From: Candidatus Latescibacterota bacterium
GTDB taxonomy: Bacteria > Latescibacterota > UBA2968 > SICM01
Length of the DNA stretch: 64,000 bases
Direction: 5' to 3'
NCBI GenBank assembly: GCA_965217865.1
Contig: CBDCJO010000002.1
Location: forward strand, 1,504,001-1,568,000
Below are positions 8,471 to 35,719 of this stretch, piece by piece. The notes beneath the pieces are model-generated. The model did not search any database and had not been told where the DNA came from. It saw only the letters and a list, made by a program, of their open reading frames with translations. Within the stretch, counting starts at the first letter, position 1. Each line of letters starts with the position of its first letter. Made by a program: the position numbers and the translations under genes.

Positions 8471-10702
8471 CTATAGTCCCGATTTGTAGCCCGACTTGCC
8501 GATGTTCACCCCCTGGATGCACTCCACACGGGTCTGGACCGTCACCTCGCCCGGGGCTGGCGTCCGGTCCATCGGCGGCCTGGGGGCCTCCAGATCGAGA
8601 CGGCCCTCGTTCTTCGTTGGATGGACCTCCTCGAAAGGTTTGAGCGGTGGCGAATCTTCCAGGGAAAAATCATCGAAGTCACCCAGGACTTCCTGGCCGT
8701 TGATGAGCAGTTCCACTTTTCCCCGGCACATCGAATAGATCTCCTTCCAGAACGGGTCCACCTCGTCACGGACTCCCACGTTTATGACATCGACGAGATC
8801 GCGTTCGATCCAGTCGCGAACGTCCCGCCCCCATTTGATGTTGAACGCCTCGTCCCCCCCGGCATCCGCAACGATCTTGATCTCGCTTCCCTGTTCGGCC
8901 GATTCCTCCGCGACCATCTCCCTCAGCTCGACGAACAGCTCCGACAGGTAGCCCGCCCGGAATTTCACCCAACGCGGCTCGTTACGGGGAAGCTGGCGCG
9001 GGTCCTCGCCGAATTTCTCCTTGAATGCCTCGCACACGTGGGGCTCGTAAAGCAGGAAGGGTACACCCCGGGAGAAGCCCACGACGATTCCCTCGCACAG
9101 GCCGCCTTGGGATCGGCTGATCTGAATGACCTCTCTGTACAGGCTCGTGATGTAGGTTCGCACTTCGGGGAAGGCGTAGCTCATCGTGTGGGACTTGGTG
9201 CCGTCCTGTTCCACCGCGAGGCACTCGGGATGGTCGCGGTAGAAAGGACCTGAGAAGAATTGAAACGGTTGGGCGTAGCCCCAGGCGCCCACGCGGAAGA
9301 ATATCCAGAAATCCATCCCCATCCGCTTCGCCTCGTCCGCCCAGACGGCCAGGCAGTTGATCCCTTTTCGGATCATTGCGGCATTCGACTCGATCACGGC
9401 CGAATCGTAATGGGCCTGCTCCACTTCGTAGCGGTCCATGACCTCGCCGATGGCGGTGGGGTAGCGCGTTTTGTCGGCGGGGCCGTTGACGTCGATCATG
9501 ATGGTGTTATAAGGTGAGTAGCGCAACCAGTCGAGAACGGCCCGGACCTCACCCTCTGTGTGCGTCGTATCTCCCCCGACGTCAACGCGTGTCGCCATCC
9601 GCGGCTTCATCGTGAGGACGGGAGCCGCGGCCTGAACAGGGGCCTCTGCCGGGACCATACGGAACCACGCGATTCCACACCGGACATTGAACGGGGCCAT
9701 GTCGGAGCGGAACGGATGTTCGTGGGGGATCGTGTCCCGTCCCGCCTTTTGTCTCAGATGGAGGTTCTGTCCACTCAGCCGTGCGCGCTTCCACAGCCTT
9801 TCCCGAAGCAAACCGCGCTCGGGCGGATATCGTTTGTATGAGGTGATGTATTGGGGGCGCTGAGGATGCAGCGACAGGTAGGAAAAACTCCGGTCATCGG
9901 TGAGCCTGAGATCGACTCCGCTGTAGAAGAAGCGGTCGTAGGGTGAGCCGGGATCGTAGAGGCCCACGTAGATATCGTACCAGCCTTCCAGCGACGCGTC
10001 GCCCAGAGGAAGGACGACCTCCCGGCCGTGGGAGTTTTCATCCACTTCCATGGCCACGCCACGATCCACGCCTAATTTCGATGCCCGGTAGTCGGCCAAC
10101 CGCCAGGTGTCCGAATGCGTGTTCACACACTCCGGGGTCTCGATCGGGATCAGCTTGATCCCGGCGAGGGCGCAGCGTAGCGTCAGGTCCTTCCACCACG
10201 GTACCTGTGCCAGGTGCAGATCCTGATCGGTCAGATCGGCGATCTTCCAGACGTGTTCGATAAAGATCTCGGCCTTTCCGTAGCCATCAATTTTTTTGAA
10301 CTGCTCAGCGTGCCAGACGGACCAGTTCGCATCGTCGGTCAGCCTGGCGTGAATCCCCTCGCCCGGGGAGCGATCGGAAGGCCCGAAGGGGTCCCACATC
10401 GCATAGCGGATCTCGTACCACCCGTCGAGTCCCAGGTTCGTCAGGGGAACCTTTACGGGCTGGGCGTGGGTGACCTGGGTGCCATAGAGCGCGACGCCCT
10501 TCACGTCTCCGGCCTTGTAATCCAGCAACTGCCACACGCCGGGGTGCTGCGGCTGGGGGGAGACGAAGGCCGACGGCTCGCAGGTGCTGAAGTCGGTGAT
10601 GGTGACGGTTTCTCTGGCTGCGTCGGCATGGTCCTCGAGTACGCACCGGCTCATATCCGAGATCAGCCGTTCGTCTCGACCGTTGTTGTGGGGCATCGCC
10701 AT
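8471..10702 (-). CDS. ~745-aa GHL10/DUF187-like TIM-barrel protein with duplicated N-terminal domain (paralog A)
   Basis: Internal repeat GWYEIRY..EHVWKIADL / GWYDIYV..ERLWKRA; C-terminal FYRDHPE, MSYAFPEVR, EGIVVGFSRG, DVRDWIERDLVD; RBS AAGGAG. Confidence 0.8.
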   Translation of the reverse strand: MAMPHNNGRDERLISDMSRCVLEDHADAARETVTITDFSTCEPSAFVSPQPQHPGVWQLLDYKAGDVKGVALYGTQVTHAQPVKVPLTNLGLDGWYEIRYAMWDPFGPSDRSPGEGIHARLTDDANWSVWHAEQFKKIDGYGKAEIFIEHVWKIADLTDQDLHLAQVPWWKDLTLRCALAGIKLIPIETPECVNTHSDTWRLADYRASKLGVDRGVAMEVDENSHGREVVLPLGDASLEGWYDIYVGLYDPGSPYDRFFYSGVDLRLTDDRSFSYLSLHPQRPQYITSYKRYPPERGLLRERLWKRARLSGQNLHLRQKAGRDTIPHEHPFRSDMAPFNVRCGIAWFRMVPAEAPVQAAAPVLTMKPRMATRVDVGGDTTHTEGEVRAVLDWLRYSPYNTIMIDVNGPADKTRYPTAIGEVMDRYEVEQAHYDSAVIESNAAMIRKGINCLAVWADEAKRMGMDFWIFFRVGAWGYAQPFQFFSGPFYRDHPECLAVEQDGTKSHTMSYAFPEVRTYITSLYREVIQISRSQGGLCEGIVVGFSRGVPFLLYEPHVCEAFKEKFGEDPRQLPRNEPRWVKFRAGYLSELFVELREMVAEESAEQGSEIKIVADAGGDEAFNIKWGRDVRDWIERDLVDVINVGVRDEVDPFWKEIYSMCRGKVELLINGQEVLGDFDDFSLEDSPPLKPFEEVHPTKNEGRLDLEAPRPPMDRTPAPGEVTVQTRVECIQGVNIGKSGYKSGL

Positions 10703-10760
10703 GTCTCCTTTCAGGTTTCACTTCCAAACGGACCCGGAACCGCTCTCTCCGGAATTCCTT

Positions 10761-12737
10761 TCACAAAAAATGAAGCAACTCCCTGATGCTTGAGATGACC
10801 GCTTCCCCCAGGATCATCCCCAGGAAGAAAGGCCGGATGTAGCCGTAGAGCGACGGCCCTCCATATTTCAGCACGTTCAGCTTGACCAACCACCCCACGA
10901 AGATATTGATCCAAAACGCTGTATGGATCGTGCCCGCTGCGTAGCCGATCGGGTGGATGGGCCACCAGTAGAACCGCTTCCGCGCAAAGATCAGTACGGA
11001 CATTGCGGCAGCGCCAACCCCGGACCAGAGGAGGCGGATGGGCTGCCCATCAGAAGAGTCGCTGATTGCGGAGCCGTAGTAGTTCAGATGGCGGTTCAGG
11101 AGCTCAGTCACGTATTGCTGCATCGAGAACCCATATGCTCCCAGACTGTAAGCATGATGCAGCATCGTAACCGTCGTCGTCACCCCTCCCACCAGAAGTG
11201 TCAGAAGCAGCAAGTAGATAAGGAGCCGGGATCGCTGCCGTGTCCCGTGCGTCAATTTAAGGGTCGTTGACGCGCCGGCCATGACGTGCGTCCTCGCGGG
11301 AAAGGCCCAGGGTTGGGCCAGGAAAAAACCCGCCGTTGTGGATGGACTAAGTATCCGGGTGCCGGCCGAGTGCAGGAATATCTGCATCGAACTCATAGGG
11401 GCGCCCAACACGACCCCGGTCTCTGCCAGGACGCGGGTGACGCCCACGAAGGTTACCAGCATCACGGCCACGAAGATCGGCAAGATCCACGAGGAGATCC
11501 CGGTCATCCAGAGCCAGCAGCAGATGAATACGACCCCACCGACGGAGCCGAAGACCGCCGTACGGTAGGAGAGCAGTTCGTCCCTGTCGTCCACCCCTGG
11601 AGCGTACCCGAAGGCCTTCCCGAACACATCTCTCAGGTGGTCCCGGGCCTCATACAACCCGACGCAGACCAGCACGGCCAGCGCGCCGATCACCTCCTGG
11701 TGCAGATGGGTATAGTGCACAGAAGGCCGGTTGGGCGGACTTCCCAGGATGGCGCTGCCGGACACTATGATCAGGTAGATCTGGACGTAACTGATCAGGG
11801 TGAAAAGCAGAATGCTGGCCAGGATCTCGAGCGAGACCAGGTAGCTGATCCCCAGGACAAGGAAATTCGTGTAGATGGGCACCCCGATCGAGTTTCTGTA
11901 GAAACGGGTATAGAAGCTGAGATTGATTGCAGGGATAACGGGAAGCAGCATTTTCAGTATGGCCGTGAAACCGACGAAAGCGGGCAGTGTGAAGCCGGAC
12001 CAGAAGATCCCGTTCCCAAGCAGCGGTCGCACCCCCGGCTCTCCGCCCGTCAGCGTCAGAGGAAGCTGCGCAAGGGGGAAAGAAAGTCGTTCATGGTCGA
12101 TCCACGGCTTGCGCAGGATTACCATCAACGAAATCATGACGAAATAAAGCGCCCCCAGGAGGATGGACCATGCGGCCATGGGCCAAATCCATACCCCGTA
12201 CGGCACGCCGCCTCCGGAGGAGAGGCCTTCGAAGAAACCCTTGGCCACGGCGTGATCTTTGATGACCAGCCCATCCGGCAGAACAGGTAAAACCAGGCTG
12301 TCCCATTGATTTTCCCGGGTGGCGTAGAAGGAAAACCCGGCCATGTGAGGAATCAGATAGAAAACGGTGATGAGGACGGCCGAGGCCAGTGTCAGCATCG
12401 AGAAGATGATGAGCAACTCTCTCGGCTCCAACCCTGAACGCATGATCCCGACCCGTTTCAGGAGGCCGATACTCAGGATCAGGACAAAAAGGAGAAACAG
12501 CGCTCCTGACCCGAGTCCGTTTGACGTCAAACCCGAAAGGCCCCTTCCACCGACGGCCTGGGCCGATGCCTCCAGAAAGGCCAGCATGCCGCTCAGGGCG
12601 AGACCGATGAGGGCCGCCCGCCAAGTCAAGCCCTGCGCGATGGGGGAGGCCTCCGCCGACGTCACCCCGGGTAGCTCACGTCCGGTTTCGATCGTTCCGG
12701 ACCACGGGTCCGGCTGATTTCCTGATTTCCGTTCCAT
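10761..12737 (-). CDS. DUF6785/DUF6784-type polytopic membrane protein, putative transporter (copy A)
   Basis: Many hydrophobic segments; LRKPWIDHERLSFPLAQLP, RDELLSYRTAV, RFYWWPIHPIG, LKYGGPSLY, RPFFLGMILG. Confidence 0.8.
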   Translation of the reverse strand: MERKSGNQPDPWSGTIETGRELPGVTSAEASPIAQGLTWRAALIGLALSGMLAFLEASAQAVGGRGLSGLTSNGLGSGALFLLFVLILSIGLLKRVGIMRSGLEPRELLIIFSMLTLASAVLITVFYLIPHMAGFSFYATRENQWDSLVLPVLPDGLVIKDHAVAKGFFEGLSSGGGVPYGVWIWPMAAWSILLGALYFVMISLMVILRKPWIDHERLSFPLAQLPLTLTGGEPGVRPLLGNGIFWSGFTLPAFVGFTAILKMLLPVIPAINLSFYTRFYRNSIGVPIYTNFLVLGISYLVSLEILASILLFTLISYVQIYLIIVSGSAILGSPPNRPSVHYTHLHQEVIGALAVLVCVGLYEARDHLRDVFGKAFGYAPGVDDRDELLSYRTAVFGSVGGVVFICCWLWMTGISSWILPIFVAVMLVTFVGVTRVLAETGVVLGAPMSSMQIFLHSAGTRILSPSTTAGFFLAQPWAFPARTHVMAGASTTLKLTHGTRQRSRLLIYLLLLTLLVGGVTTTVTMLHHAYSLGAYGFSMQQYVTELLNRHLNYYGSAISDSSDGQPIRLLWSGVGAAAMSVLIFARKRFYWWPIHPIGYAAGTIHTAFWINIFVGWLVKLNVLKYGGPSLYGYIRPFFLGMILGEAVISSIRELLHFL

Positions 12738-12798
12738 TTTAGACTGAGTCGATATCTAAGCCCCGACGGCCGATTGAAAAAGCACGACATCGTGCCCG

Positions 12799-14328
12799 TT
12801 ACTTCGGGGTAACACGGACTTCGACTTCCTGAATTGTCACATTCTCTGTGACAGCGGGATCATCGCGCAGGGTGAAGCCGATCTCATTGGCTCCGTCTCG
12901 GAGCATCCCGTCTTCGAGCGGGAACTGCGCGTAGAGAAACCCTTCGCTTTTGTGGGGGATCAGTGACAGCTTATCGGTGGGAATCTCCTGATCATTGACA
13001 TCCACACACAGAGAACGGATGTCGGTAAGCCTGCGCGCTTTGAACCGGACCGAGGCCTCCGCATGCTTGAGGTCTTCGTGCAGGCGACAGGGAACGGTCT
13101 TCCGCCCTGAAGCGCCAGGGGTCAGCTCGACATGGAGGAAATAGGACTCGGAGAAGAGCGCGCCTTTCATGTAGATGTAACGCCGTTCCTTTCCCTCGAT
13201 CCCTTCAGGAAGACAGATGTCTGGGAGAGGGTCGTACCCGGAAGGGGAGAAGTTGAAGAACGACAGGCCGTCGGCCCCCTCGGCGTAGAACCCGTGGGCC
13301 AGGGCACGAATGTTCTCTCGCGTCACCTGGGAGGTGCCTTGTTCAGTTTCTTTCAACCCATACTCCTCCGGGAGGCAGAGGTCGCTCTGGTAGGAGGTGA
13401 GTCCGATGATTCCAGGGTATACGGCACAGCTCGTGGAGGAGGCCAGCTCGACCCAGGGTTCGATGACCATGTTGAAATCGGTCACATAGGTTTCCGTGGG
13501 GCTCACGTAGTCCAGCAGCCCGTCCTGAATCCACGCGTCGACGTCCATGCCTCCGACGCGGCAGAAATCGATATCCCAGGGTACGATCGCGCCGACGACG
13601 GGCGAGGTCTTCCCCCGTTTGGTGACGGCCTCGACGACGATCCTGCGACATTCGGCGACGAAGGTCGTCAAGTGGTGCGCGTTCTTTGACGGAAAGCTGA
13701 CGCAGTGCGGGCCTCTGAGGAAGTTGAGGGTCAGGCCGGCCACATCGTATCGCTCGATGAACTCCCTGACCAGCGACAGGCGGTTTTCGCGCACCTCGGG
13801 AACGGAATAGTCGAGCAGATGCGGTCGAAGCTCCGAGTCGATGCACGAATGCTGGACAGGGCCCACGCAGGGGTAGTCGAACGAGGGGGGACCGCCGGCC
13901 GCATTTTCGATGACACCGATTCGCCACTCGGGATGCTTGAGCCAGAACCAGCCTGCAAATTCCGGATGGTAGGTCACGTGGTGGCCGTCGTTGGGCCGCA
14001 GCTTGGCGAGCATGGTAAGGCCGTGACCGTTGACCTCATCGACCAACAGCTTGAAGGGATCCACATCGGCCGCCATCAATCCGCGCATCGCGACGGCCAT
14101 GGGCGTCCGAACCGACGGGATGTTTCCCAGGACCTGCCCGACACGGGTTGGGAAATACCAGCAGATCCCCTCCTGGGTGGCCGCACACACGCTGATGATG
14201 TCCGCCCCGCTCTCCAGGAACAATCGGATGGCCTTTGCCAGTCTCGCGGGGCCGTCCTCTCCGGCGGCCTCTGCCACATAGCCGTGGTCGTCGTGGATGA
14301 CGATCTTTTTCCCATTGGAATTTTTCAC
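12799..14328 (-). CDS. GHL10/DUF187-like glycoside hydrolase family protein (509 aa)
   Basis: LRPNDGHH, WLKHPEW, LDYSVPEVRE, DVAGLTLNFLR, GMDVDAWIQDGLLDY, GADGLSFFNF; GTG start. Confidence 0.78.
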   Translation of the reverse strand: MKNSNGKKIVIHDDHGYVAEAAGEDGPARLAKAIRLFLESGADIISVCAATQEGICWYFPTRVGQVLGNIPSVRTPMAVAMRGLMAADVDPFKLLVDEVNGHGLTMLAKLRPNDGHHVTYHPEFAGWFWLKHPEWRIGVIENAAGGPPSFDYPCVGPVQHSCIDSELRPHLLDYSVPEVRENRLSLVREFIERYDVAGLTLNFLRGPHCVSFPSKNAHHLTTFVAECRRIVVEAVTKRGKTSPVVGAIVPWDIDFCRVGGMDVDAWIQDGLLDYVSPTETYVTDFNMVIEPWVELASSTSCAVYPGIIGLTSYQSDLCLPEEYGLKETEQGTSQVTRENIRALAHGFYAEGADGLSFFNFSPSGYDPLPDICLPEGIEGKERRYIYMKGALFSESYFLHVELTPGASGRKTVPCRLHEDLKHAEASVRFKARRLTDIRSLCVDVNDQEIPTDKLSLIPHKSEGFLYAQFPLEDGMLRDGANEIGFTLRDDPAVTENVTIQEVEVRVTPK

Positions 14329-15815
14329 GCTACGCTCCTTTGCTTATCATAAAACTGGAGAGCGAAAAGGTCGGCGTCCTTCATGACGAACCGAAGCCGA
14401 ACGGGCATGCCGGCAAGCGAGCTTAAGTCGCCGGACTCCTTCCAGGCGACCCCCCGCACTATGTGGTCGCCGTATATCTCCGGACAGTCCTCAAGTTTGA
14501 AGCCAGTCAAAGGTTCGCCCGAGGCGTCCTGGATCTCCACCCTCACGGAGCCGGCCGCGGACGTCGCGTAGTTGATCACGAGCCCTCCACCCGAAAAGAC
14601 CAGAGGCCTGGTGATCAGCTCACCCCCGGGATAGCCCGCGTGCATTGAGACGAATCCGTCAAGCCTCAGGGTGGAACGACGCAAATGGATGTCATCGTGC
14701 TGCCAGTGCGAGACGTAGTAGAGGGACATCTCATCCGGCCCGGTCTGCAGTATGCCGGGCGAGCAGGTGAAGTTTCCGTGATTTACCCAGTTGCGCTCGT
14801 CCAACCCCGGCCGGAGGAACGCCTCCTTGAAACGCCGATCCCAGTGCAGTCCGTCCCGGCTGCTCATGAACAGCGCATCGGCGAGTCCCGCGGTTCGGGC
14901 GATGGCGCTGCCCGCCCAACCTCTGATCGTTTCACGATCGGGGATGAAACGCATCGGAAAGCCCACGAACATATGCGGGGCGCGAAAATACTTTGTCACG
15001 GCGTTCGTATAGAGGTGCTCCAGAGGGGGATCCCCATCATAGATAAGCCACTCCTGCGGGGACCAGTTTATGTAGTCCTTAGACGTGCTCCGCGTAATCG
15101 CGCGCACCCGGTCCGGGACGCCCGCCCAGCGGTGGTATTCTTCCGGAGGCGCGTCCAGGTCGGGAGGCACCGTGAACCCCTTTTTCCGGGATACCCAGTT
15201 CCGCAAAAAGGCCATATACAGCTTGCTTTCGGGATCCCATAGAGACGTGTTGTGCGTGTCCAGGGGCCCCCCCACGATGACCGGCTCCTTGCGCCACCAT
15301 TCCCAGTGCAGGCCATCCGATGAGGACATGGTCCCCTTGGGGCCACCGTAGCCGAGGGTTATTCCACAGATGGCCTTGTAACGCCTCTCGGGGGGTGCCT
15401 CCGGATTTTCGTCCTTGAAACCGTGCCATTGGGGCGTTCCATCCCCTATATAGGTGATGTTGTTTTCTCTGCTCCCGTTGAACTCGTAAAGCCCAAGGTT
15501 CGGTTTGGTCCAGTTGATCCCGTCAATGCTTTCAGCGTAGCACGTGCAGGAGGATCCGGGCCTTCCCTTCTGCATTTCCCGGCGGCCCCCCCGGTAGTAC
15601 ATTCTGAATCTGTCGCCGTCCTTGAAGACGGTCGGGGTGCCGCTCATGTGCCCTTCCCAGGGCATGGTCAGGTCGAATATCATCCCCGCGTCCGTCGGCT
15701 TCTGCAGATCGAAACGCAGACCCTTCATCTCGTCGACGAGCCAGTCATCCACGAACAGCTCCAGGCGGGAGCCGATCTGGAGAGGCGCTGTCCCGTTCGA
15801 TATTCCCTTCGTCAA
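14325..15815 (-). CDS. GH32/GH43-like beta-propeller protein
   Basis: ELFVDDWLV, PWEG, CYAESIDGINWTKPNLG, SSDGLHW, SRDGLHWDR, LRLDGFVSM, LVINYATSAAGSVRVE, VRLRFVMKDADLF. Confidence 0.82.
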   Translation of the reverse strand: MTKGISNGTAPLQIGSRLELFVDDWLVDEMKGLRFDLQKPTDAGMIFDLTMPWEGHMSGTPTVFKDGDRFRMYYRGGRREMQKGRPGSSCTCYAESIDGINWTKPNLGLYEFNGSRENNITYIGDGTPQWHGFKDENPEAPPERRYKAICGITLGYGGPKGTMSSSDGLHWEWWRKEPVIVGGPLDTHNTSLWDPESKLYMAFLRNWVSRKKGFTVPPDLDAPPEEYHRWAGVPDRVRAITRSTSKDYINWSPQEWLIYDGDPPLEHLYTNAVTKYFRAPHMFVGFPMRFIPDRETIRGWAGSAIARTAGLADALFMSSRDGLHWDRRFKEAFLRPGLDERNWVNHGNFTCSPGILQTGPDEMSLYYVSHWQHDDIHLRRSTLRLDGFVSMHAGYPGGELITRPLVFSGGGLVINYATSAAGSVRVEIQDASGEPLTGFKLEDCPEIYGDHIVRGVAWKESGDLSSLAGMPVRLRFVMKDADLFALQFYDKQRSVA

Positions 15816-15900
15816 AGAAGATCCTCCTGTCTTGGCGATTTGGTTTCCGTTTTCACGTCTTTTTGTCCATCCGAGATTTCGGATCAGGAACCAGACTCGC

Positions 15901-18156
15901 CTACATGCCCGATTTGTAACCCGGCTTACCGATGTTCAATCCCTGTATACTCCCCACGCGGGTCTGGACCGTCACCTCGCCGGGGGCAGGCGTCCGGTCC
16001 ATTGGCGGTCTGGGGGCCTCCAGAACAAGACGGCCCTCATTCTTCGATGGATGGATCTCCTCGAAGGGTTTGAGCGGGGGCGGATCTTCAAGGGAAAAAT
16101 CATCGATGTCACCCAGGACCTCCTTGCCGTCGATGAGGATCTCGACTTTTCCCCTGCACATCGAATAGATCTTTTTCCAGAACGGGTCCACCTCGTTGCG
16201 GGCCCCGACGGTTATGACGTCGACGAGACCGCGGTCGACCCAGTCTCGAACGTCCCGCCCCCATTTGATGTTGAACGCCTCGTCCCCCCAGGCATCCGCA
16301 ACGATCTTGATCTCGCTCCCCTGTACTGCGGATTCCTCTGCGAGCATCCCCCGCAGCTCGACGAACAGCTCCGACAGGTAGCCCGCACGGAACTTCACCC
16401 AGCGCGGCTCATCGTCGGGAAGCTGGCGCGGGTCCTCGCCGAATTTCTCCTTGAACGCCTCGCACACGTGGGGCTCGTAAACCAGGAAGGGTACGCCCCG
16501 GGAGAAGCCCACGACGATTCCCTCGCACCGGCCACCTTCGGATCGGCTGATCTGAATGACCTCTCTGTACAGGCTCGTGATATAGCTTCGCACTTCGGGG
16601 AAGGCGTAGCTCATCGTGTGCCACGGCGTGCCGTCCTTGGCGACCGCGAGACATTCGGGATGGTCGCGGAAGAACGGCCCGCAGTAGGCCTGATACGGTT
16701 GGGCATAGCCCCAGGCGCCCACGCGGAAAAATATCCAGAAGTCCATCCCAATCCGTTTCACCTCGTCAGCCCAGACGGCCAGGCAGTTGACGCCGTTACG
16801 AATCATCGAAGCGTTGGACTCGATTATGCGTCGGTCTATGATTCGCAGCTCCACTTCGTAACGGTCCATCACCTCTCCGATGTCCGTGGGGTAGCGGGTT
16901 TTGTCCGGGGGGCCGTTGGGGTCAAGCATGATGGTGTTATAGGGGGAGTGGCTCAGCCAGTCGAGTGCAGCCCGGACATCACCCTCCGTACGAGTCAAAT
17001 CCCCCCCAACGTCAACACGCGTCGCGAGCCGGGGCTTCATCTTGGGGACGAGCGCCGTGGCTTGAACCGGCGCATCTGCAGGGACCAGCCGGAACCACGC
17101 GATACCGCACCGGACGTTGAACGGCGCGAAATCGGGACGGGGGTGCTCATGGGGGATTGTATCGAGATCCCGCTTCTGCCTCAGATGAATGCTCTGGCTG
17201 TCCAGCTTCGCGCGCTTCCACAGCCTTTCGGTGAACACACCGCGCTCTGCCGTCGGCCGAGCGGACTCGCCTGCAACCCGCCCCCCCAGATTGGGTTCGA
17301 CCCTCACGGGCCTCGGCGAATGGAGCTCCAAGTGGGAGAAACCCGGATCATCGCTGAGCTTCAGATCGACGCCGGGGTAGAAGAAGCGGTCGTAGGTTGA
17401 GCCGGGATCGTAGAGGCCCACGTAGATGTCGTACCAACCCTGAAGCGATGGGTCGTCCAGGGGAAGGAGGATCTCCCTTCCGCGGCAGTCCTCGTCCACC
17501 TCCAGGGCCACGCCTCGATCCACGCCGAAATCCGATCCCCGGTAATCGGCCAGTCGCCAGGTGTCCGAATGCGTGTTCACGCGCTCCGGCGTCTCGATCG
17601 GAATGAACTTGATCCTGGCAAGGGCGCAGCGCAGCGTCAGGTCCTGCCACCACGTGACCTGCGCCAGGTGCAGATCCTGATCGGTCAGATCGGCGATCTT
17701 CCAGACGTGTTCGATGAAGGTTTCGGCCTTTCCGTAGCCATCAATTTCTGTGAACTGCTCAGCGTGCCATACGGACCACTTCGCGTCGTCACTGAGCCTG
17801 GCGCGAATCCCCTCGCCCGGGGAGCGATCGGAAGGCCCGAAGGGGTCCCACATCGCATAGCGGATCTCGTACCAACCGTTGAGTCCAAGGTTCGTCAGGG
17901 GAACGTGAACCGGTTGGGCGTGGGTGTTCTCCGTGCCGTAGAGCGCGATTCCCTGAACTTCACTGGCCTCGTAATCCAGCAACTGCCACACGCCGGGGTG
18001 CTGGGGCTGGGGGGAGACGAAGGCCGACGGCTCGCACGCGCTGAAGTCGGTGATGGTGACGGTCTCCCTGGCTGCGGCGGCATGGTCCTCGAGTACGCAC
18101 CGGCTCATATCCGAGATCAGCCGTTCGTCTCGACCGTTGTTGTGGGGCATCGCCAT
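15901..18156 (-). CDS. ~745-aa GHL10-like TIM-barrel protein (paralog B)
   Basis: Highly similar to 8471..10702 over its full length; identical 5' end and RBS. Confidence 0.8.
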   Translation of the reverse strand: MAMPHNNGRDERLISDMSRCVLEDHAAAARETVTITDFSACEPSAFVSPQPQHPGVWQLLDYEASEVQGIALYGTENTHAQPVHVPLTNLGLNGWYEIRYAMWDPFGPSDRSPGEGIRARLSDDAKWSVWHAEQFTEIDGYGKAETFIEHVWKIADLTDQDLHLAQVTWWQDLTLRCALARIKFIPIETPERVNTHSDTWRLADYRGSDFGVDRGVALEVDEDCRGREILLPLDDPSLQGWYDIYVGLYDPGSTYDRFFYPGVDLKLSDDPGFSHLELHSPRPVRVEPNLGGRVAGESARPTAERGVFTERLWKRAKLDSQSIHLRQKRDLDTIPHEHPRPDFAPFNVRCGIAWFRLVPADAPVQATALVPKMKPRLATRVDVGGDLTRTEGDVRAALDWLSHSPYNTIMLDPNGPPDKTRYPTDIGEVMDRYEVELRIIDRRIIESNASMIRNGVNCLAVWADEVKRIGMDFWIFFRVGAWGYAQPYQAYCGPFFRDHPECLAVAKDGTPWHTMSYAFPEVRSYITSLYREVIQISRSEGGRCEGIVVGFSRGVPFLVYEPHVCEAFKEKFGEDPRQLPDDEPRWVKFRAGYLSELFVELRGMLAEESAVQGSEIKIVADAWGDEAFNIKWGRDVRDWVDRGLVDVITVGARNEVDPFWKKIYSMCRGKVEILIDGKEVLGDIDDFSLEDPPPLKPFEEIHPSKNEGRLVLEAPRPPMDRTPAPGEVTVQTRVGSIQGLNIGKPGYKSGM

Positions 18157-18214
18157 GTCTCCTTTCAGGTTTCACTTCCAAACGGACCCGGAACCGCTCT
18201 CTCCGGAATTCCTT

Positions 18215-25957: not shown

Positions 25958-28207
25958 CTAGAATCCGGAACCATATCCGGGCGTGAGTGCCATTCGCCCC
26001 ACCTGAATGACGGTTACCTGGGCGGTTTGCGTGCCGGGCGGACGCGTACCTGTGTTTGGAGGCGTTGGCTCATCGATGGTAAGCTCACCTTCTTCGGCGA
26101 TTGGATGATCCCTATCCAGCCCATCTCGATCGAGCGCGGAATCGGGCGCGGTCGCAGCGCCATCCAAACCATCAAACTGGGCTTTGAGCTCGTCCATTCC
26201 CCACTTCGCTCCATAGAGGATGATCTGGACATTCCCCTTGGATCTCATCTCCTTATAAAAATCGGGATCCAGTGTGTCCCAGCCGCCAATGTGCGGATCG
26301 GCAATCAGCACGTCGACAAGCCCTTTCTCGACCCACTCCCGCACATCCAGGGCATACCGGAGGTTCACCTGTTCATTCGAAAACGCGTAGGGTATCAGCT
26401 TGATCGGGGTTTTCTGTTTTTTTGACTCCTCGTCGAGCATTTTTCGAAGATCCTCCATCAGTTTGGTGACGTGCCGGGCGCGGAATTTCAGCCAGCGGCC
26501 GTCGTCATCGGGAAGCTCCAGCGGATCCTCTCCGTATTCCTTTTCGAAGGCCTCACACACGTGCGGCTCGTAACCGACAAATTCCGGACCCCTGAGAAAA
26601 CCCAGTGCAATCCCGTCAATCCTGCCGCCTCCGACCTGGCAGTGCCCGATGATTTCCCGGTAGAGGGCCACAACGTAGTCGCGGACTTCGGGATACGCGT
26701 AGCTCATCTTGGCCGTGGCATGAACGCCGTCCTTATTGATAATGCAGTACTCCGGATGATTGCGGAAGAACGGCCCCGAGTTCCCTTCCGAATCAGAGCC
26801 CCACGCCCCCATGCGGAGCATCACCCAGAAGTCCAGGCCCATCCGGTGCGCTTCATCGGTCGATACGGTCAGGACGTTCACGCCATTTTCGATGAGCGAC
26901 CTCCGGCCATGGATGCTGAACTCATCCCACTGCCGCTTCGTGACGCACGATTGAATACCCGGTTCTCCAACCTTTGTCGGGTATGTGGTCTTGTCGATTG
27001 ACAGCGTAGGGCCCAACACCAAGATGTTGCAGTCCTCAGCCCGTCTGACATAAGTCCGAACGATTTGTCTTACGTCGCCTTCGGTGGTCGCGTCGTACTC
27101 GACCAGTGCATCCGTGTCCCATCCGACAGTAATCATCGGCTTTTTCGCCTTCACGGGTTCTGAGACCGATGGGACGGCTTCAGCCGGAACGAACCTCAGC
27201 CACGCAACGCCACAGCGGACGTTGAAATGTATGTAGTCCGGCTTATAGATCCCCGGGCCGCACCAGGTGGCGAACCGGCTCTTTTGGCGGAGGCGGATGT
27301 CCTGGCCGTCCATCTTGACACGCTTCCAGATTCGCTCCCGAAAAAACCCACGTTTCACCGAAAAATACGGTTCGTTCCATCCCGGCGTCGGATGGAGCGG
27401 CAAATGTGTAAAGCCCGATTCGCTGGTTGTCCTGATATCGATCCCGGCGAAGTTGTATTTCTCATCGTGAGGGGAGACCGGATCGTAGAGCCCCACGTAA
27501 ACGTCATACCAGCCCGCCAACTTTTCCTCACCCAGAGGTAAAACGATCTCCTCTCCGAAGCAATCTTCATCGACTTCCAGCCCAACGCCTTCCTCAACGC
27601 CACGCTCGGGGGCCGCGTATTTCGACAGTTTCCACGTGCCATGGCTCGTGTTGACATGCTTCGGTGTCGGGATGGGAATCAGCTTCAACGATGCCAAAGT
27701 GCATGGCAAAGTCCGATGTCTCCACACCGGGATCTGGGCAAGGTGCAGGTCCTGGCCTGCCAGGTCCGCGATCTTCCAGACTCGTTCATTGACCTTTAAG
27801 CTCTTGGTTTCGGCGTGCGCCTCCCAGGTTGACCAATCCGGGTCTTTGCTTAGCCTTGCGTGTATCCCCTCCCCTGGAGGCCGATAGTGAGGGGGATTGT
27901 GATCCCACATGCCGTAGCGGACCTCATACCAGCCCTTGAGCTTCAATGCGCTCAGCCTGTAAACGACCGGTGTCGCTAGCGTGGTCTCTGTACCGAACAG
28001 CGCAAAACCTTCGACATCTCCTGCCTTGTATGGCTTCAGCTGCCATATGCCGGGGGTCTCCGGATGCCTGGACACGAAGGTCTGCGGCTCGCACGCGCTG
28101 AAGTCGGTGATGGTGATCGTTTCCCTCGATGTGTTCGTACGGCTTGCAGGGGCACATCGGCTCAAGTCCGAGATCAGCCGTTCGTCTCGACCATTGTTGT
28201 CTGGCAC
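25958..28207 (-). CDS. ~745-aa GHL10-like TIM-barrel protein (paralog D)
   Basis: Same architecture; body closest to 33485..35719, N-terminus like A/B/C; GTG start after AAGGAG. Confidence 0.8.
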   Translation of the reverse strand: MPDNNGRDERLISDLSRCAPASRTNTSRETITITDFSACEPQTFVSRHPETPGIWQLKPYKAGDVEGFALFGTETTLATPVVYRLSALKLKGWYEVRYGMWDHNPPHYRPPGEGIHARLSKDPDWSTWEAHAETKSLKVNERVWKIADLAGQDLHLAQIPVWRHRTLPCTLASLKLIPIPTPKHVNTSHGTWKLSKYAAPERGVEEGVGLEVDEDCFGEEIVLPLGEEKLAGWYDVYVGLYDPVSPHDEKYNFAGIDIRTTSESGFTHLPLHPTPGWNEPYFSVKRGFFRERIWKRVKMDGQDIRLRQKSRFATWCGPGIYKPDYIHFNVRCGVAWLRFVPAEAVPSVSEPVKAKKPMITVGWDTDALVEYDATTEGDVRQIVRTYVRRAEDCNILVLGPTLSIDKTTYPTKVGEPGIQSCVTKRQWDEFSIHGRRSLIENGVNVLTVSTDEAHRMGLDFWVMLRMGAWGSDSEGNSGPFFRNHPEYCIINKDGVHATAKMSYAYPEVRDYVVALYREIIGHCQVGGGRIDGIALGFLRGPEFVGYEPHVCEAFEKEYGEDPLELPDDDGRWLKFRARHVTKLMEDLRKMLDEESKKQKTPIKLIPYAFSNEQVNLRYALDVREWVEKGLVDVLIADPHIGGWDTLDPDFYKEMRSKGNVQIILYGAKWGMDELKAQFDGLDGAATAPDSALDRDGLDRDHPIAEEGELTIDEPTPPNTGTRPPGTQTAQVTVIQVGRMALTPGYGSGF

Positions 28208-29584: not shown

Positions 29585-29650
29585 CTGGCCTGACCTCTCT
29601 ATTAGGACGTATCAATGAATTCTTAACACACTTCGTGTCCACCATCGTCT

Positions 29651-30517: not shown

Positions 30518-30523
30518 CGTTGA

Positions 30524-30595
30524 TTATCTCCACCGGCAGAGAATGAACTCGCAGCCCAGCCCATCGGTACGCTTATCGTCGACGAGAAGGGCCAT
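30524..30595 (-). pseudogene. duplicated 3' remnant of the 121-aa gene 31497..31862
   Basis: Reads MALLVDDKRTDGLGCEFILCRWR* versus MALLVDDKRTYGLGCEFILERWR* in the intact gene. Confidence 0.8.
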
Positions 30596-31490: not shown

Positions 31491-31496
31491 CGTTGA

Positions 31497-31862: not shown

Positions 31863-31896
31863 TCAGGCCTCCTCTCTCAGACGTGCAACATCCGGG

Positions 31897-33420
31897 CTAA
31901 GAGACATAACCCGGATAGCTCAAAACTCTTGAACCATAGGTCACTTCGAGATCTATTTTCATGACCTGGACCGACGCGTGGAGATTCGGATATCTCGGTG
32001 ACAGGACGAATCTCAACTCATTCATGCCTCTCCTCATCCTTCCAGGATCGACGGCAAGCTCCAGGTGCCACCAGGGACAATCCTCGGGGTGCTCAAAGCC
32101 GCGGAATGGCATCCTCTGCACGGACTCCCTCACGGGCGAGCCCAGGGACTCGCCATTCAGAAACACCGCCACATCCTCTAGATTCGGGACATTCTGGATG
32201 TTCAGGAGGAGGCGGATACGGGGATGACATCCATATCTCGCAGCGGCCTCGAGGTCATCACTGAAGCGGAGCTCTGTCTTCGCTTCACCGCCGGTCGCGG
32301 AATTTCCAAGTTCCAATGGAAGGTCGACCTGAGCAACATACACCTTGTCCTTGAATCGGATCTCATCCGGACCGCCAAGATCCTTAACAAGGTGGCGGAC
32401 ATCGAAGCCCTGCTCCTCGCGCATCATATAATCGTAGAATGAGACGCCATCGGCACCTTGATCATAAAGGTGTGCGGCGATTGCGCGGTGCTCTTCCAGC
32501 GTGTGCCACCTTGCATTCCCCGGGGCGGACACATACCTCCTGATCGGTTTTCCCGGACCGGCATACAGCCTGCAATTCGTGCCCTCTACAACCTCCTTCC
32601 ACTCGGTGATATCGGGTTCGAAGCAGGCCTTGCTGCGGTAATGGCCGATAAGAATGTCTATCAACCCCTCACTTGCCCATTGGCGTAGATCGAGACCATA
32701 ACCATATGCGTCCTGAACGGAACGCCGTTCAGGATCGTGTGCATAAACCTGTGCAGAGAGTCCGAGCCGGTTGCCTTTTTTTTCACCCACTTCATCCAGC
32801 ATGGAGCGCATATCACGCACGAATTCGGTCATCAGGGGCCGACCCTCATCCACATCGTCGGGGGCGAAGAAGCCCGGGGATCGTGTGTAATCCAGGTCTA
32901 TTCCATCCACGTCATATCGCTCTGCGACGTCGCGCATGAAGGCCAGACTCAGCTCCCTTACCTCGGACCTTGCCCAGTTGTAGGATCCATCCGGCAGGCG
33001 CAATTCCGGATTGTCACGATAATAGTCCGATTGGGGAGGATCGATATGTTTGTATGTGTGGTGCCGATCGTTCATGCGTCGGGAGCCCCAAACCTGCATC
33101 CCTCCGCTGTGTCCCTCCTCACATACGATCCTGAGGGGATCATTCCCGCTTTCGATCAGGTGATGAAGGTTCTTGGCCAGCTGCCAGTTCGAGAATCTCT
33201 TGTGTTGATGCTCGCTCGAGCCCCAGATCTCAAGCACCCTGGAATCGAAGAAGGCGGTCGTACTGCCGATACACCACTGGAAGATACCCACGTGAGAACC
33301 GGCCAGTGCCCTGACTTCGGCCAGGACTGCTTCTGGTGTGATTGGATACTCGTACTGGTCTTTCCAGCCGCCTAAGAAGCTAAGTCCATCACACGTCATG
33401 AGCAGCGGCTTGTCAGTCAT
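31897..33420 (-). CDS. GHL10/DUF187-like glycoside hydrolase family protein
   Basis: SRRMNDRHH, YNWARSEVRE, YDVDGIDLDYTR (canonical Asp), GLDLRQWASEGLID, GADGVSFY; start moved to MTDKP after RBS GGGAG. Confidence 0.8.
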   Translation of the reverse strand: MTDKPLLMTCDGLSFLGGWKDQYEYPITPEAVLAEVRALAGSHVGIFQWCIGSTTAFFDSRVLEIWGSSEHQHKRFSNWQLAKNLHHLIESGNDPLRIVCEEGHSGGMQVWGSRRMNDRHHTYKHIDPPQSDYYRDNPELRLPDGSYNWARSEVRELSLAFMRDVAERYDVDGIDLDYTRSPGFFAPDDVDEGRPLMTEFVRDMRSMLDEVGEKKGNRLGLSAQVYAHDPERRSVQDAYGYGLDLRQWASEGLIDILIGHYRSKACFEPDITEWKEVVEGTNCRLYAGPGKPIRRYVSAPGNARWHTLEEHRAIAAHLYDQGADGVSFYDYMMREEQGFDVRHLVKDLGGPDEIRFKDKVYVAQVDLPLELGNSATGGEAKTELRFSDDLEAAARYGCHPRIRLLLNIQNVPNLEDVAVFLNGESLGSPVRESVQRMPFRGFEHPEDCPWWHLELAVDPGRMRRGMNELRFVLSPRYPNLHASVQVMKIDLEVTYGSRVLSYPGYVS

Positions 33421-33432
33421 GGTGGTCTCCCT

Positions 33433-33464
33433 GGAAATGGAAAATACAAAATGGAAAATGAAAA
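33433..33464. repeat. degenerate 7-mer array (GAAAATG type)
   Basis: GGAAATG GAAAATA CAAAATG GAAAATG AAAA in a 64-bp intra-operon spacer. Confidence 0.75.
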
Positions 33465-33484
33465 CGTCTCGCCCGAACAATCGA

Positions 33485-35719
33485 TTAGAATCCCGAACCC
33501 GCGCCCGGGGTGAAGACCATGAGCCCCGCCTGAATGACATCCACCTGGTCGGTTTGCGTGCCGGGTGGACGCGTACCTGTGTTTGGAGGCGTTGGCTCAT
33601 CGATGGTAAGCTCACCTTCTTCGGCGATTGGATGATCCCTATCCAGCCCATCCCGATCGAGAGCGGAATCTGGCGCGGTAGCAGGGCCATCCAAACCATC
33701 AAACTGGGCTTTGAGGTCGTCCATTCCCCACCGCGCTCCGTAGAGGATGATCCGGATATTCCCTTTGGATCTCATCTCCTTGTAAAATTCGGGATCCAGT
33801 GTGTCCCAGCCGCCGTGGCTCGGGTCAACGATCACGGCATCGACCAGCCCTTTTTCGACCCATTCGCGCACATCCAGGGCATTTAGAAGGTTCACCTGTT
33901 CATTCGAAAACGTGTAGGGTACCAGCTTGATCGGGCTTCCCTGCTTTTTTGTCTCCTCCTCCAGCATTTCACGAAGATCCTCCATGAGTTTGGTGACGTG
34001 CCGGGCGCGGAACTTCAGCCAGCGGCTGTCCTCATCGGGAAGCTCCAAGGGATCCTCGCCGTATTCCCTTTGGAAGGCATCACACACGTGCGGTTCGTAA
34101 CCGACGAATGGCGGACCCCTGAAAAACCCCGGTGCAATTCCGTCGATCCTTCCGTCTCCGACCTGGCAGTGCCCGATGATTTCCCTGTAGAGCGCCACCA
34201 CGTAGTCGCGGACTTGGGGATACGCGTAGCTCATCTTGACCTTGGCGTGAACGCCGTCCTTGTTGACGATGCAGTACTCCGGATGCTTTTGGAAGAACGG
34301 CCCCGCGGCCCATTCCGAATCAGTGCCCCACGCCCCCATGCGGAGCATCACCCAGAAGTCCATTCCCATCCGGTGCGCCTCATCGGCCCCCACGTTCGGT
34401 AGGTTCACGCCATTTTCGATGAGCGACCTCCGTCCCTGGATGCTCAGCTCATCCCACTGCCTCTTCGTTACGCAGGATTGTGTTCCGGTCTCGCCAATCT
34501 TTGTCGGGTATGTGGTCTTGTCGATTGCGCAGTTCGGGTCCATCAAGAAGATATTGCAGCCCTCAGACCGTCTGACAGCAGTCCGAATGACTTGTCTTAC
34601 GTCGCCTTCGGTGGTCGCGTTGTACTCGGTCAGTGCGTCCCAGGTGTCCAATCCCGCAATCAGAATCGGCTCTTTTGCCTTCACGGGCTCTGAGACCGAT
34701 GGGGGGGCTTCAGCCGGAACAAACCTCAGCCACGCGACGCCACAGCGGACATTGAAATGTATGTAGTCCGGCTTATAGACCCCCGGGCCGCACCAGGTGG
34801 TGAACCGGCTCTTCTGGCGGAGGTGGATGTCCTGGCCGTCCATCTTTACACGCTTCCAGAGTCGCTCCCGGAAAAATCCCCGTTTCACCGAAAAATAGGG
34901 CTCGTTCCATCCTGGCGTCGGATGGAGCGGCAGATGCGTGAAGCCCGATTCCCCGGTTGTCCGGATGTCGATGCCGGCGAAGTTGAACTTCTCATCGTGG
35001 GGAGAGACCGGATCGTAGAGCCCCACGTAAACGTCGTACCAACCTGAAAGGTTTTCCTCACCCAGGTGTAAAACGATCTCCTCTCCGAAGCAATCTTCAT
35101 CGACCTCCAGCCCAACACCTTCCTCAACACCACTCTCTTGAGCCGAGTATTTCGACAGTTTCCACGTGTCGTGGCCCGTGTTGACATGTCTGGGTGTCGG
35201 GATCGGAATCAGCTTCAACCAGGCCAAAGCGCACGGCAAAGTCCGATGTCTCCAGAGCGGGATCTGGGCCAGATGCAGGTCCTGGCCTGACAGGTTCGCG
35301 ATCTTCCAGACACGCTCATTGACTTCGCGGTTCTTGGTTTCGGCGTGCGCCTTCCACAGCGACCAATCCGGATCTTTGCTGAGCCTCGCGTGCATCCCCT
35401 CCCCTGGAGGGCGGTGGTGAGGGGGATTTTGAGCCCACATCCCGTAGCGGACCTCATACCAGCCCCTGAGCTTCAATGCGCTCAGCTTATAGACGACCGG
35501 CTGCGCTCGCGTGGTCTGTGTGCCGATCAGCGAAAAGCCTTCGACATCTCCGGCCTTGTAAGGCTTCAGCTGCCATAGGCCGGGTGTCTCCGGATGCCTG
35601 GATACGAAGGTTTGCGGCTCGCACGCGCTGAAATCGCTGATCAGCAGGGTCTCCCGCGAGTCGCTTTCAGCGTCAATCCCCACGACGGGTTCGAAACGGC
35701 TCAGATCTGTGATGATCAT
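33485..35719 (-). CDS. ~745-aa GHL10-like TIM-barrel protein (paralog E)
   Basis: Close paralog of 25958..28207 with a different N-terminus (MIITDLSRFEP); RBS GAGGA. Confidence 0.8.
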   Translation of the reverse strand: MIITDLSRFEPVVGIDAESDSRETLLISDFSACEPQTFVSRHPETPGLWQLKPYKAGDVEGFSLIGTQTTRAQPVVYKLSALKLRGWYEVRYGMWAQNPPHHRPPGEGMHARLSKDPDWSLWKAHAETKNREVNERVWKIANLSGQDLHLAQIPLWRHRTLPCALAWLKLIPIPTPRHVNTGHDTWKLSKYSAQESGVEEGVGLEVDEDCFGEEIVLHLGEENLSGWYDVYVGLYDPVSPHDEKFNFAGIDIRTTGESGFTHLPLHPTPGWNEPYFSVKRGFFRERLWKRVKMDGQDIHLRQKSRFTTWCGPGVYKPDYIHFNVRCGVAWLRFVPAEAPPSVSEPVKAKEPILIAGLDTWDALTEYNATTEGDVRQVIRTAVRRSEGCNIFLMDPNCAIDKTTYPTKIGETGTQSCVTKRQWDELSIQGRRSLIENGVNLPNVGADEAHRMGMDFWVMLRMGAWGTDSEWAAGPFFQKHPEYCIVNKDGVHAKVKMSYAYPQVRDYVVALYREIIGHCQVGDGRIDGIAPGFFRGPPFVGYEPHVCDAFQREYGEDPLELPDEDSRWLKFRARHVTKLMEDLREMLEEETKKQGSPIKLVPYTFSNEQVNLLNALDVREWVEKGLVDAVIVDPSHGGWDTLDPEFYKEMRSKGNIRIILYGARWGMDDLKAQFDGLDGPATAPDSALDRDGLDRDHPIAEEGELTIDEPTPPNTGTRPPGTQTDQVDVIQAGLMVFTPGAGSGF

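Follow-up and report, generated by a model that had tools for sequence, protein, structure and literature searches.

A recombining array of DUF6785 membrane genes and GH156-related enzyme genes in a Latescibacterota bacterium

The stretch of Candidatus Latescibacterota DNA analysed here (64,000 nucleotides of contig CBDCJO010000002.1; hereafter the window) raises the question of whether a gene for a DUF6785/DUF6784-type membrane protein and a gene for a protein of about 745 amino acids, found next to each other three times, form a dedicated system. A first-pass annotation, made from the sequence alone, read them as an import-plus-processing unit that had been amplified and was as yet uncharacterised. 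Neither family is characterised in the literature searched, as that annotation had supposed, and neither is mentioned in the available part of PMC12993501. Our best reading of the array, however, is that it is a lineage-specific expansion in a sugar-catabolism island and not a dedicated conserved module.

Layout of the array

Open reading frames for the three membrane genes (M1–M3) and for the enzyme genes behind them (E1–E3) lie where they had been annotated, on the minus strand (Table 1), with 58, 58 and 64 bp between the membrane-gene stop and the enzyme start and a strong ribosome-binding site at each junction. The two additional enzyme paralogs (E4 and E5) and the fourth membrane gene (M4) are likewise present, although M4 is frameshifted near 49580, beside a PhyH gene and a sulfatase fragment, and M2, also correctly placed, is a frameshifted gene whose real extent is that given in Table 1. 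Pairs 1 and 2 are parted by a two-gene insert that encodes a 496-aa protein, which we take from its sequence to be beta-propeller glycosidase-like, and a 509-aa GH156-type protein in which the beta1 Asp, RxNDxH, the beta4 Arg and the beta8 Asn are all found on alignment. The surrounding island is rich in genes for BNR sialidase-like, GH156, GH29, GH127 and sulfatase proteins that lack signal peptides. An NCBIfam search gave useful matches for none of 10 window proteins, and a scan for promoter-like sites (11, against 5.5 in shuffles) and terminator-like sites (25, against 15.9) yielded nothing usable because the promoter-like sites were all on the plus strand.

Table 1 Genes of the array and its neighbours in the window
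Feature	Position	Strand	Description
E1	8471..10702	-	743 aa; nested N-terminal beta domain pair, GH156-related (beta/alpha)8 barrel (about 366-686), C-terminal tail
M1	10761..12737	-	658 aa; DUF6785+DUF6784, predicted OPT/YSL fold
GH156-type protein	12799..14328	-	509 aa, canonical; 61 bp upstream of M1
496-aa protein	14325..15815	-	without Pfam or NCBIfam match; 13 paralogs in genome
E2	15901..18156	-	751 aa; 81% identity to E1
M2	18215..20082	-	DUF6785/6784; frameshift at run of ten G near 19661
E3	20141..22369	-	742 aa; 70% identity to E1 and to E2
M3	22434..24299	-	DUF6785/6784; 621 aa from TTG
Short-chain dehydrogenase (SDR)	24394..25179	-	opens gene run
E4	25958..28207	-	749 aa; 45-47% identity to E1-E3; no DUF6785 gene adjoining
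GH156-type protein	31897..33480	-	about 527 aa; RMNDRH; E 7e-31 to 6RZD; directly downstream of E5
E5	33485..35719	-	744 aa; 82% identity to E4; no DUF6785 gene adjoining
M4	48250..50210	-	DUF6785/6784; about 56% identity to M1; two frames, 49299-50210 and 48250-49629

Predicted folds and active site

Both the DUF6785 and the DUF6784 profile score above the Pfam cut-off at all four membrane loci (319.9 and 85.5 bits for M1), in line with the family assignment made earlier. M1 is the sole array copy with an ATG and a full N-terminus; M2 and M3 lack about 36 N-terminal residues and the ATG of M1, leaving a TTG at the first helix as the only start candidate, and the intact form of M2, present in four other cluster members, has 623 aa. 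The predicted model of M1 (pLDDT 82.8) matches barley YS1 with a Foldseek E of 1.1e-8 and TM scores of 0.62/0.67, and aligns to it over 544 residues (Z 23.9, rmsd 4.0; runner-up match, Z 5.9). As judged from this model, the membrane protein is predicted to have the OPT/YSL transporter fold over its whole chain. At the level of sequence, M1–M4 gave no match to the OPT profile PF03169 at E<=0.01 and a 30-row profile found no significant match in the PDB; PF03169 is carried by 11% of the members of one DUF6785 Atlas cluster. Kinship of DUF6785 to a 795-aa membrane protein of another locus (L077) was considered and set aside, the profile comparison being weak (probability 3.3%, E 0.013).

Each of the five enzymes has the two N-terminal domain copies described by the first-pass annotation, and these prove to be nested, with copy 1 (residues 29–195) enclosed by copy 2, which takes its first strand from residues 7–21. 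Pfam has no match for the domain, and the best PDB sequence hit, at E 0.14, is not significant. A crude Kyte-Doolittle test found no hydrophobic leader in E1–E5 (best 11-residue mean 0.64–1.33), which agrees with the reported lack of an evident signal peptide, and the conserved terminal G[YA]xSG[LMF] holds for all five but not for their closest outside relatives, P0006 and P0007, which end in YAAGL. The barrel, described as GHL10-like, is of the glycoside-hydrolase type. GHL10 (PF02638) scores 54.1 bits for E4, 46.4 for E5, 24.1 for E3 and 19.0 for E1 and does not match E2, so that two of the five pass the curated cut-off of 27.9 bits; at E<=0.01 the match is a weak one, seen in four of the five and in 57 of 80 relatives. 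The lists from a fold search with E1 are filled by barrel matches, with GH156 at the top (Foldseek E 1.5e-12). The predicted E1 model superposes on EnvSia156 with Z 24.0 (rmsd 3.2, 283 residues aligned), and the enzyme family profile matches 6RZD at E 1.9e-37 with D14, R129, R202 and N346 aligned, which is why we rejected GHL10 as the best label in favour of GH156, the closest characterised family.

On this modelling the ~745-aa enzyme is a GH156-sialidase-related barrel without the catalytic His134. D374, the equivalent of the beta1 base Asp14, is invariant in the five window enzymes, and R470 and R545 are the equivalents of the carboxylate-binding Arg129 and Arg202. The RxNDxH motif that holds His134 is absent, RVGAWG or RMGAWG standing in its place with Gly at the His134 position. 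Among 113 relatives with a single N-terminal domain (single-N), D374 is conserved in 94%, R470 and R545 in 100% each and E553 in 98%, and His occupies the GH156 catalytic position in seven. The beta8 Trp-Asp motif, conserved at 93%/91% in these relatives, is scattered among 13 rows of the long type and lost in the window enzymes; the Asn346 position is Asp in 91% of the single-N relatives and falls in a remodelled, poorly aligned region in E1–E5, and the beta7–beta8 region is shortened in the long type. Because the family's beta8 motif is lost, the window enzymes may be inactive or may act differently. They are probably members of a large, unstudied His-less family, which comprises 215 clusters at E<=1e-30, of which we found no description in the literature searched and which may cut acidic sugars. 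Since 19 of the 51 CAZy GH156 entries were pruned as being without the dyad or triad (10.1101/2022.06.28.497753), such His-less relatives may already sit in GH156.

One alternative is that the ~745-aa proteins arose from GH156 as non-catalytic binders of carboxylate sugars, serving as receptors, chaperones or sensors. It would account for the replacement of His134 by Gly, the shortened beta7–beta8 region and the lost Trp-Asp motif as consequences of having become binders; the extra beta domain gained through nested duplication is consistent with such a role, and the true GH156 genes that adjoin could do the cutting. Yet no full-length long-type row has lost the base Asp, either Arg or E553, and the lack of the His extends over the entire large family, which retains a beta8 Asp. 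Moreover, His134 variants of EnvSia156 keep substantial activity on an activated substrate and Asp14 mutants are dead (PMC6811678). We therefore consider binding without catalysis unlikely.

Copy ages, strain variation and gene neighbourhood

The synonymous divergence (dS) of the E1–E3 pairs is 0.44, 0.68 and 0.61 and that of the M1–M3 pairs, over their 3′ parts, is 0.075, 0.24 and 0.19, making the membrane copies far younger than the enzymes. A tract of ~180 codons at the end of the gene shows zero difference between M1 and M2 and is 82–83% identical in the M2 of four other cluster members; membrane copies are mosaic between strains, and the enzymes behind them are unchanged. Simple co-duplication of a fixed transporter-enzyme unit can be rejected, since the dS of the membrane genes and that of the enzyme genes are several-fold apart. 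Copy ages and mosaic membrane copies also argue against three independent pairs: the three pairs are one recombining tandem array. Contigs from 4 of 22 sequencing runs could be compared with the locus, which gives no strain frequencies. In one (X8) the SDR stop (24394) is joined to the ribosome-binding site of E3 (22381) and in another (X14) to an E2-like start, so that M3 is skipped in both, a difference that may reflect either gain or loss of M3. The claim of a dedicated, amplified transporter-enzyme unit is thus not supported, given membrane copies that are homogenised and shuffled by recombination, enzymes that remain distinct and one membrane copy that is absent in contigs of two runs.

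A dedicated pairing, in which each transporter is matched to the enzyme encoded behind it and may dock with it, and the unit is amplified for related substrates, would fit the three tight junctions with their ribosome-binding sites. It would also fit the purifying selection under which both genes stand (dN/dS about 0.24–0.31), the peaks of enzyme divergence at codons 226–450 and 526–675, which include barrel loops, and the presence of the array in several assemblies of the species. Against it, membrane copies vary by strain in front of a constant enzyme, M3 can be missing, and 13 of the 16 DUF6785 genes and four of the seven long enzymes in the source genome are unpaired. In two other genera a related enzyme adjoins, or lies one gene from, a DUF6785 gene, but there the order is opposite, the enzymes are of the single-N type and one of the DUF6785 proteins is only 29–31% identical to M1. 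As far as gene neighbourhood goes, co-occurrence in other genomes, on which the annotation had staked its reading, was largely missing: this membrane gene and the long enzyme were not found side by side in independent genomes, and their adjacency is limited to one array in one species. The long enzyme was found in one of 168 genomes of the phylum, and searching genome and metagenome contigs by pattern gave two loci from each, all truncated at contig ends. The nearest outside enzyme paralog (57%, G000:C2:422807-425053) lies in a run made up of a single-N enzyme, a propeller-like gene, GH156, another gene and an enzyme, with no DUF6785 gene. We regard dedicated pairs as improbable.

DUF6785 occurs in 31 of 31 genomes of the class, with 4 to 62 matches each, beside very mixed and, in relatives, mostly non-glycosidase neighbours. 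Two of the loci in the source genome stand directly before genes for M28+FtsX proteins of 1510 and 1516 aa, a context also found in genome G002. Both observations would suit a scheme in which a common machine encoded elsewhere, the giant M28-peptidase/FtsX-like membrane protein, uses the various DUF6785 proteins interchangeably as its substrate-binding subunits; the cargo of the DUF6785 proteins would then be peptide-like or otherwise unrelated to the enzymes, and their place in the array incidental. Eight of 14 DUF6785 loci in the source genome, however, lie within 10 genes of BNR genes (1.5 expected), and five of 14 lie near members of the window enzyme family (0.9 expected), fewer than near BNR genes. 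With the window loci left out, the enrichment persists near BNR genes (6/12, p 0.0002) and near GH156-related genes (3/12, p 0.044), and three other DUF6785 loci head same-strand runs of glycosidase-like genes. A common energising partner would also be compatible with sugar cargo, and we hold the incidental scheme to be possible but doubtful.

Proposed function and comparison with known systems

The reading that we favour, with a probability of roughly 0.55, is that of a species-limited recombining array in which a carrier with a predicted OPT/YSL fold likely imports small acidic oligosaccharides and cytoplasmic His-less GH156-related enzymes likely cleave them, the two sharing an operon and not forming fixed cognate pairs. 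The earlier idea of import plus processing thereby survives in the predicted transporter fold and in a glycoside-hydrolase-type barrel without signal peptide, but not as a dedicated unit. By likeness to YS1, whose proton-coupling aspartates are D446, D490 and D494, import would use an elevator-type carrier, with protons or a shared ATP-driven partner supplying the energy. The invariance of two carboxylate-binding arginines, together with an island full of sialidase-like, glycosidase and sulfatase genes lacking signal peptides, suggests a cargo with a carboxylate at or beside the anomeric carbon, either a sialic-acid-like ulosonic acid or a uronic acid. Hydrolysis would be inverting, with D374 as the base; the acid replacing His134 would most likely be the family-specific invariant E553, which lies in an insertion absent from GH156. 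PgaB has a similar Tyr-Glu ahead of a helical insert, so the role of E553 may be structural rather than catalytic. The enzymes would have duplicated first, after which the transporter gene was probably recruited, unequal recombination and gene conversion then spreading it ahead of them.

The module itself, as a local expansion, carries little weight; its parts carry more. We tentatively raise a wider, rather speculative reading. In it the enzymes form a glycoside hydrolase family of their own, not yet classified, which is a sister of GH156, spans hundreds of clusters and cleaves ulosonic acids of bacteria or invertebrates (pseudaminic, legionaminic, Kdo, Kdn or substituted sialic acids) with an Asp/Glu pair where GH156 uses Asp/His; DUF6785 proteins are the first OPT-fold oligosaccharide carriers; and together they serve SusC/D-free harvesting of acidic glycans in this marine phylum. 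Such a His-less sister family, with its invariant carboxylate-binding arginines, would be a new enzyme source for acidic sugars with few known hydrolases and would show a new catalytic arrangement on the GH156 barrel. If an OPT-fold carrier took sugar, the range of a superfamily known for peptides and metal chelates would be broader, and the dozens of DUF6785 copies kept by these uncultured bacteria would have an explanation. The array contains three natural variants of the carrier and five to seven of the enzyme.

To our knowledge, characterised OPT/YSL carriers take peptides, glutathione or metal chelates, and none takes sugars. Cwp19 and PgaB are secreted and act on peptidoglycan or PNAG. 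Of the known systems, the inverting GH156 exo-sialidase EnvSia156 (PDB 6RZD/6S00/6S04; PMC6811678) shares with the window enzymes the barrel and the equivalents of Asp14, Arg129 and Arg202, at 17–19% identity; they differ from it in lacking His134 and NDxH, in the Asn346 position (Asp in the His-less family, degenerate in the window enzymes), in an insertion of ~35 residues with an invariant Glu after beta4 that the family carries, and in accessory beta domains that are N-terminal and doubled where EnvSia156 has a single C-terminal one. The barrels of GHL10 Cwp19 (5OQ2) and of the PgaB GH153 domain are related (Z 22.0 and 18.5), but the window enzymes lack a signal peptide and possess the GH156-type arginine pair. 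M1 matches the fold of barley YS1 (7WSR; PMC9691689) over its whole length at just 12–14% identity, the known cargo of OPT/YSL transporters being metal chelates or peptides. As in polysaccharide-utilisation-type loci, a carrier gene heads or lies within runs of glycosidase, sulfatase and oxidoreductase genes; in contrast to such loci, the array is free of SusC/SusD and ABC solute-binding genes, its enzymes are predicted to be cytoplasmic and its carrier to have an OPT fold.

Gene order, state and history of the array

Read along the minus strand, the genes run E4, an SDR gene, M3, E3, M2, E2, a 496-aa unknown, a 509-aa GH156-type gene, M1 and E1 (E, long-type enzyme with a doubled N-domain; M, DUF6785+DUF6784 carrier), with successive gaps of 778, 94, 64, 58, 58, 85, -4, 61 and 58 bp. 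Comparison of the window DNA with itself revealed a unit of ~4.2 kb in three copies, as well as further tandem pairs in the same island, including pairs among the window's six genes for PhyH-type dioxygenases. Transposase genes of the IS630, IS1380, IS200 and IS1595 types lie on the array flanks, and a sixth long enzyme, whose stop is overlapped by an IS630-type gene, lies 7 kb past the window end. Three ORFs of the glycosidase island have no Pfam or NCBIfam match; nor does a ~490-aa family of 13 paralogs, which is often close to GH156-related genes (7/26 within three genes).

Features of the array and its surroundings (window positions unless a locus or contig is named)
Feature	Coordinates	Strand	Remark
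338-aa ORF	1921-2937		no Pfam/NCBIfam match
Transposase genes	4491-8258		array flank
E1	8471-10702	minus
M1	10761-12737	minus
GH156-type gene	12799-14328		canonical, RxNDxH
~490-aa family member	14325-15815
E4	25958-28207	minus
PhyH tandem pair	29651-31490		84% identical
GH156-type gene	31897-33480		canonical, RxNDxH
E5	33485-35719	minus
~490-aa family member	38782-40227
266-aa ORF	40312-41112		no Pfam/NCBIfam match
1012-aa ORF	43071-46109		no Pfam/NCBIfam match
PhyH tandem pair	46119-47894		93% identical
M4	48250-50210	minus	split over two frames
Transposase genes	63438-64000		array flank
Sixth long enzyme and IS630-type gene	G000:C2:1574190-1577410		past the window end
DUF6785 and M28/FtsX genes	L077:8531-17770		G000
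DUF6785 and M28/FtsX genes	L078:8717-15696		G000
DUF6785 and M28/FtsX genes	L093:7768-16927		G002

The frameshift in M2 falls near 19661, in a G10 run. One extra base is present there in a contig from sequencing run X8, and four other cluster members encode an intact 623-aa M2, whereas contigs from run X1 match the window almost exactly and lack the extra base; the lesion is therefore strain- or assembly-specific.

Enzymes and carriers of the array differ in their divergence. Synonymous divergence (dS) is 0.44, 0.68 and 0.61 among the E1-E3 pairs, and among M1-M3 it is 0.075, 0.24 and 0.19 in the 3′ parts and 0.19-0.25 in the 5′ parts, with dN/dS of ~0.24-0.31 both in the enzymes and in the carriers' 3′ parts. 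M1 and M2 do not differ over their final ~180 codons, and this identity runs on through the spacer into the start of the enzyme gene. In four other cluster members the M2 sequence is only 82-84% identical to that of the window over those ~180 codons, and one protein compared (P0205) has an M1-type start and an M3-type end. The SDR gene is joined straight to an enzyme start in contigs of two of the four runs compared, one contig each (X8, 24394 to 22381, where the SDR stop comes right before the ribosome-binding site; X14, 24394 to 18162). Two assemblies with SDR, M1, M2 and E3 members contribute none to the M3 cluster, such cluster absence being weak evidence, and the nearest outside paralog cassette is without a carrier. 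We infer that the enzymes had already diversified when carrier copies joined the array and became homogenised. Identities are 86-96% among M1-M3 and 70-81% among E1-E3 (E4 and E5 share 82%, and the two enzyme groups 44-47%). We consider a reading of the array as dedicated cognate carrier-enzyme pairs very unlikely.

Carrier-enzyme association in the source genome and its relatives

Gene calls of the source genome (G000) comprise 16 DUF6785 genes and 26 ORFs with N-domain and barrel, seven of them long type, and direct carrier-enzyme adjacency occurs only in the array (3/16 and 3/7, respectively). Counting the array once leaves 14 DUF6785 loci, of which one has the enzyme family directly beside it (expected 0.19, p 0.17) and five have it no more than 10 genes away (expected 0.96, p 0.002). 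Within the same distance, BNR genes occur at eight loci (expected 1.5), PhyH genes at six, SDR genes at four and sulfatase genes at three, such that loose proximity to DUF6785 is not peculiar to the enzyme family. Leaving out the window's two loci gives 3/12 for the enzyme family (p 0.044) and 6/12 for BNR (p 0.0002); within catabolic islands only, the DUF6785-enzyme link is 5/9 versus 19% (p 0.016).

Among relatives, for which the locus sets partly overlap, DUF6785 is present in 2 of 20 enzyme loci, both from one genus, in the order enzyme, PhyH, carrier. No DUF6785 locus out of 14 in two same-family genomes has an enzyme-family gene within three genes, and co-location within 1.5 kb, with many flanks incomplete, is seen in 2/30 loci from the phylum (the 30 include one from G000) and 0/30 of another phylum. 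When 20 loci were widened to ~9 kb each side, co-location was seen in the same two as at 1.5 kb; these come from one genus, the enzyme gene precedes the carrier gene, the carrier shares 29-31% identity with M1, and the genomes hold as many as 62 carriers. With six candidates scored per genome, the full-length long type was found in 1 of 168 genomes of the phylum, namely G000; the long-type gene of a further genome, G031 (incomplete), lies between a GH39/GH10-like gene and one for a zinc dehydrogenase. The array is real but lineage-specific, so the first-pass annotation's import-plus-processing unit is not supported as a conserved module.

A carrier with a predicted OPT/YSL fold

Both DUF6785 and DUF6784 profiles match M1. 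A model of M1 built from 30 sequences (pLDDT 82.8, pTM 0.85) found barley YS1 with Foldseek (E 1.1e-8; two matches at E<=0.001, both YS1) and superimposed on it with Z 23.9 and rmsd 4.0 over 544 residues, the next-best Z being 5.9. M1 is thus predicted to have an OPT/YSL fold without a sequence match to OPT/YSL proteins; YS1 is described as a proton-coupled, elevator-type OPT-family carrier (PMC9691689). The DUF6785 family is present in 31/31 genomes (G000 and 30 of its class; from 4 to at least 34 matches each), reaches 24-62 matches in five further, fully scored genomes and is absent from 14/14 control genomes. Our literature search found no paper on DUF6785 or DUF6784.

At three loci, two of them in G000, a DUF6785 gene is directly followed by one for a protein of 1510-1536 aa that carries M28-peptidase-like and FtsX domains; L077 and L093 also encode, after it, a membrane protein of ~800 aa that has no Pfam match. 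This giant gene is likely the core context of the DUF6785 family. In a rival reading, which we think unlikely, the carriers would be interchangeable subunits serving one common ATP-driven machine, and their cargo would be unrelated to the enzymes.

Enzymes related to GH156 that lack the catalytic histidine

A five-enzyme profile has a single match among PDB sequences, the GH156 sialidase 6RZD (E 5e-6), and a 126-row family profile finds it at E 1.9e-37 and Cwp19 at 1.1e-12. For the E1 model (pLDDT 80.4, pTM 0.77), GH156 ranks top in Foldseek and in VIA-align (Z 24.0; Cwp19 22.0, PgaB 18.5). Searching 1.84 billion representatives with a profile, we obtained 1778 proteins at E<=1e-3, 753 at 1e-10 and 215 at 1e-30, the looser-cutoff counts taking in GH156 proper. 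The 148 new proteins among the matches listed comprise 133 with one N-domain and barrel, 13 with barrel only and two with a split N-domain match. In 113 relatives of 500-670 aa among these matches, D374 (94%), R470 and R545 (both 100%), E553 (98%) and a beta8 Trp-Asp (93%/91%) are retained, and His occupies the GH156 position in 7/113. Gly is among the last two residues in 80/113; in alignment A4, 83/126 rows stop 13-14 residues past the E1 G731 column, and this near-fixed end point suggests a free C-terminus that may be buried or functional. Proteins of ~590-780 aa in the phylum of G031 (L137, L138, L139, L141, L143, L147) have another architecture and match the N-domain and first barrel half only.

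In the window enzymes, a rare derivative of this His-less family, one N-domain encloses a second, and the beta7-beta8 region is shortened and lacks Trp-Asp. They lack a signal-peptide-like leader, which two outside long-type relatives (P0007 and P0008, 46%) carry. G000 has an unusually large sialidase-like repertoire, with 26 His-less-family ORFs and 10 bearing the GH156 RxNDxH motif, eight of the latter elsewhere in the genome; where inspected, these apparently lack signal peptides. At title level, our literature search found no paper on the His-less family. A GH156 survey reports that 19 of 51 CAZy entries were pruned because the dyad or triad is missing (10.1101/2022.06.28.497753); some His-less relatives may therefore already be in CAZy, though unstudied.

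We favor, at roughly 55%, a reading in which the carrier imports small acidic oligosaccharides that cytoplasmic enzymes then break down together with the products of neighbouring GH156, BNR, GH29, GH127 and sulfatase genes. An arginine pair would hold the carboxylate, D374 would activate water, with E553 as the candidate acid. The folds, residues and gene order are shown or predicted here; the cargo, the substrate, the catalytic role of E553 and the energy source are what we infer. That the enzymes act instead as non-catalytic binding proteins seems to us quite unlikely. Of interest are the His-less family, which is unstudied, and the possibility that an OPT-fold carrier takes sugars as its cargo.

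In EnvSia156, Asp14 is the base and His134 the acid, and Arg129, Arg202 and Asn346 hold the carboxylate (PMC6811678). E1 has RVGAWG where EnvSia156 has RMNDVH, and because the His134 criterion fails we do not file the enzyme as a GH156 member; E1 nevertheless retains the equivalents of Asp14, Arg129 and Arg202 (D374, R470 and R545), and is predicted to be GH156-like in fold and carboxylate recognition.
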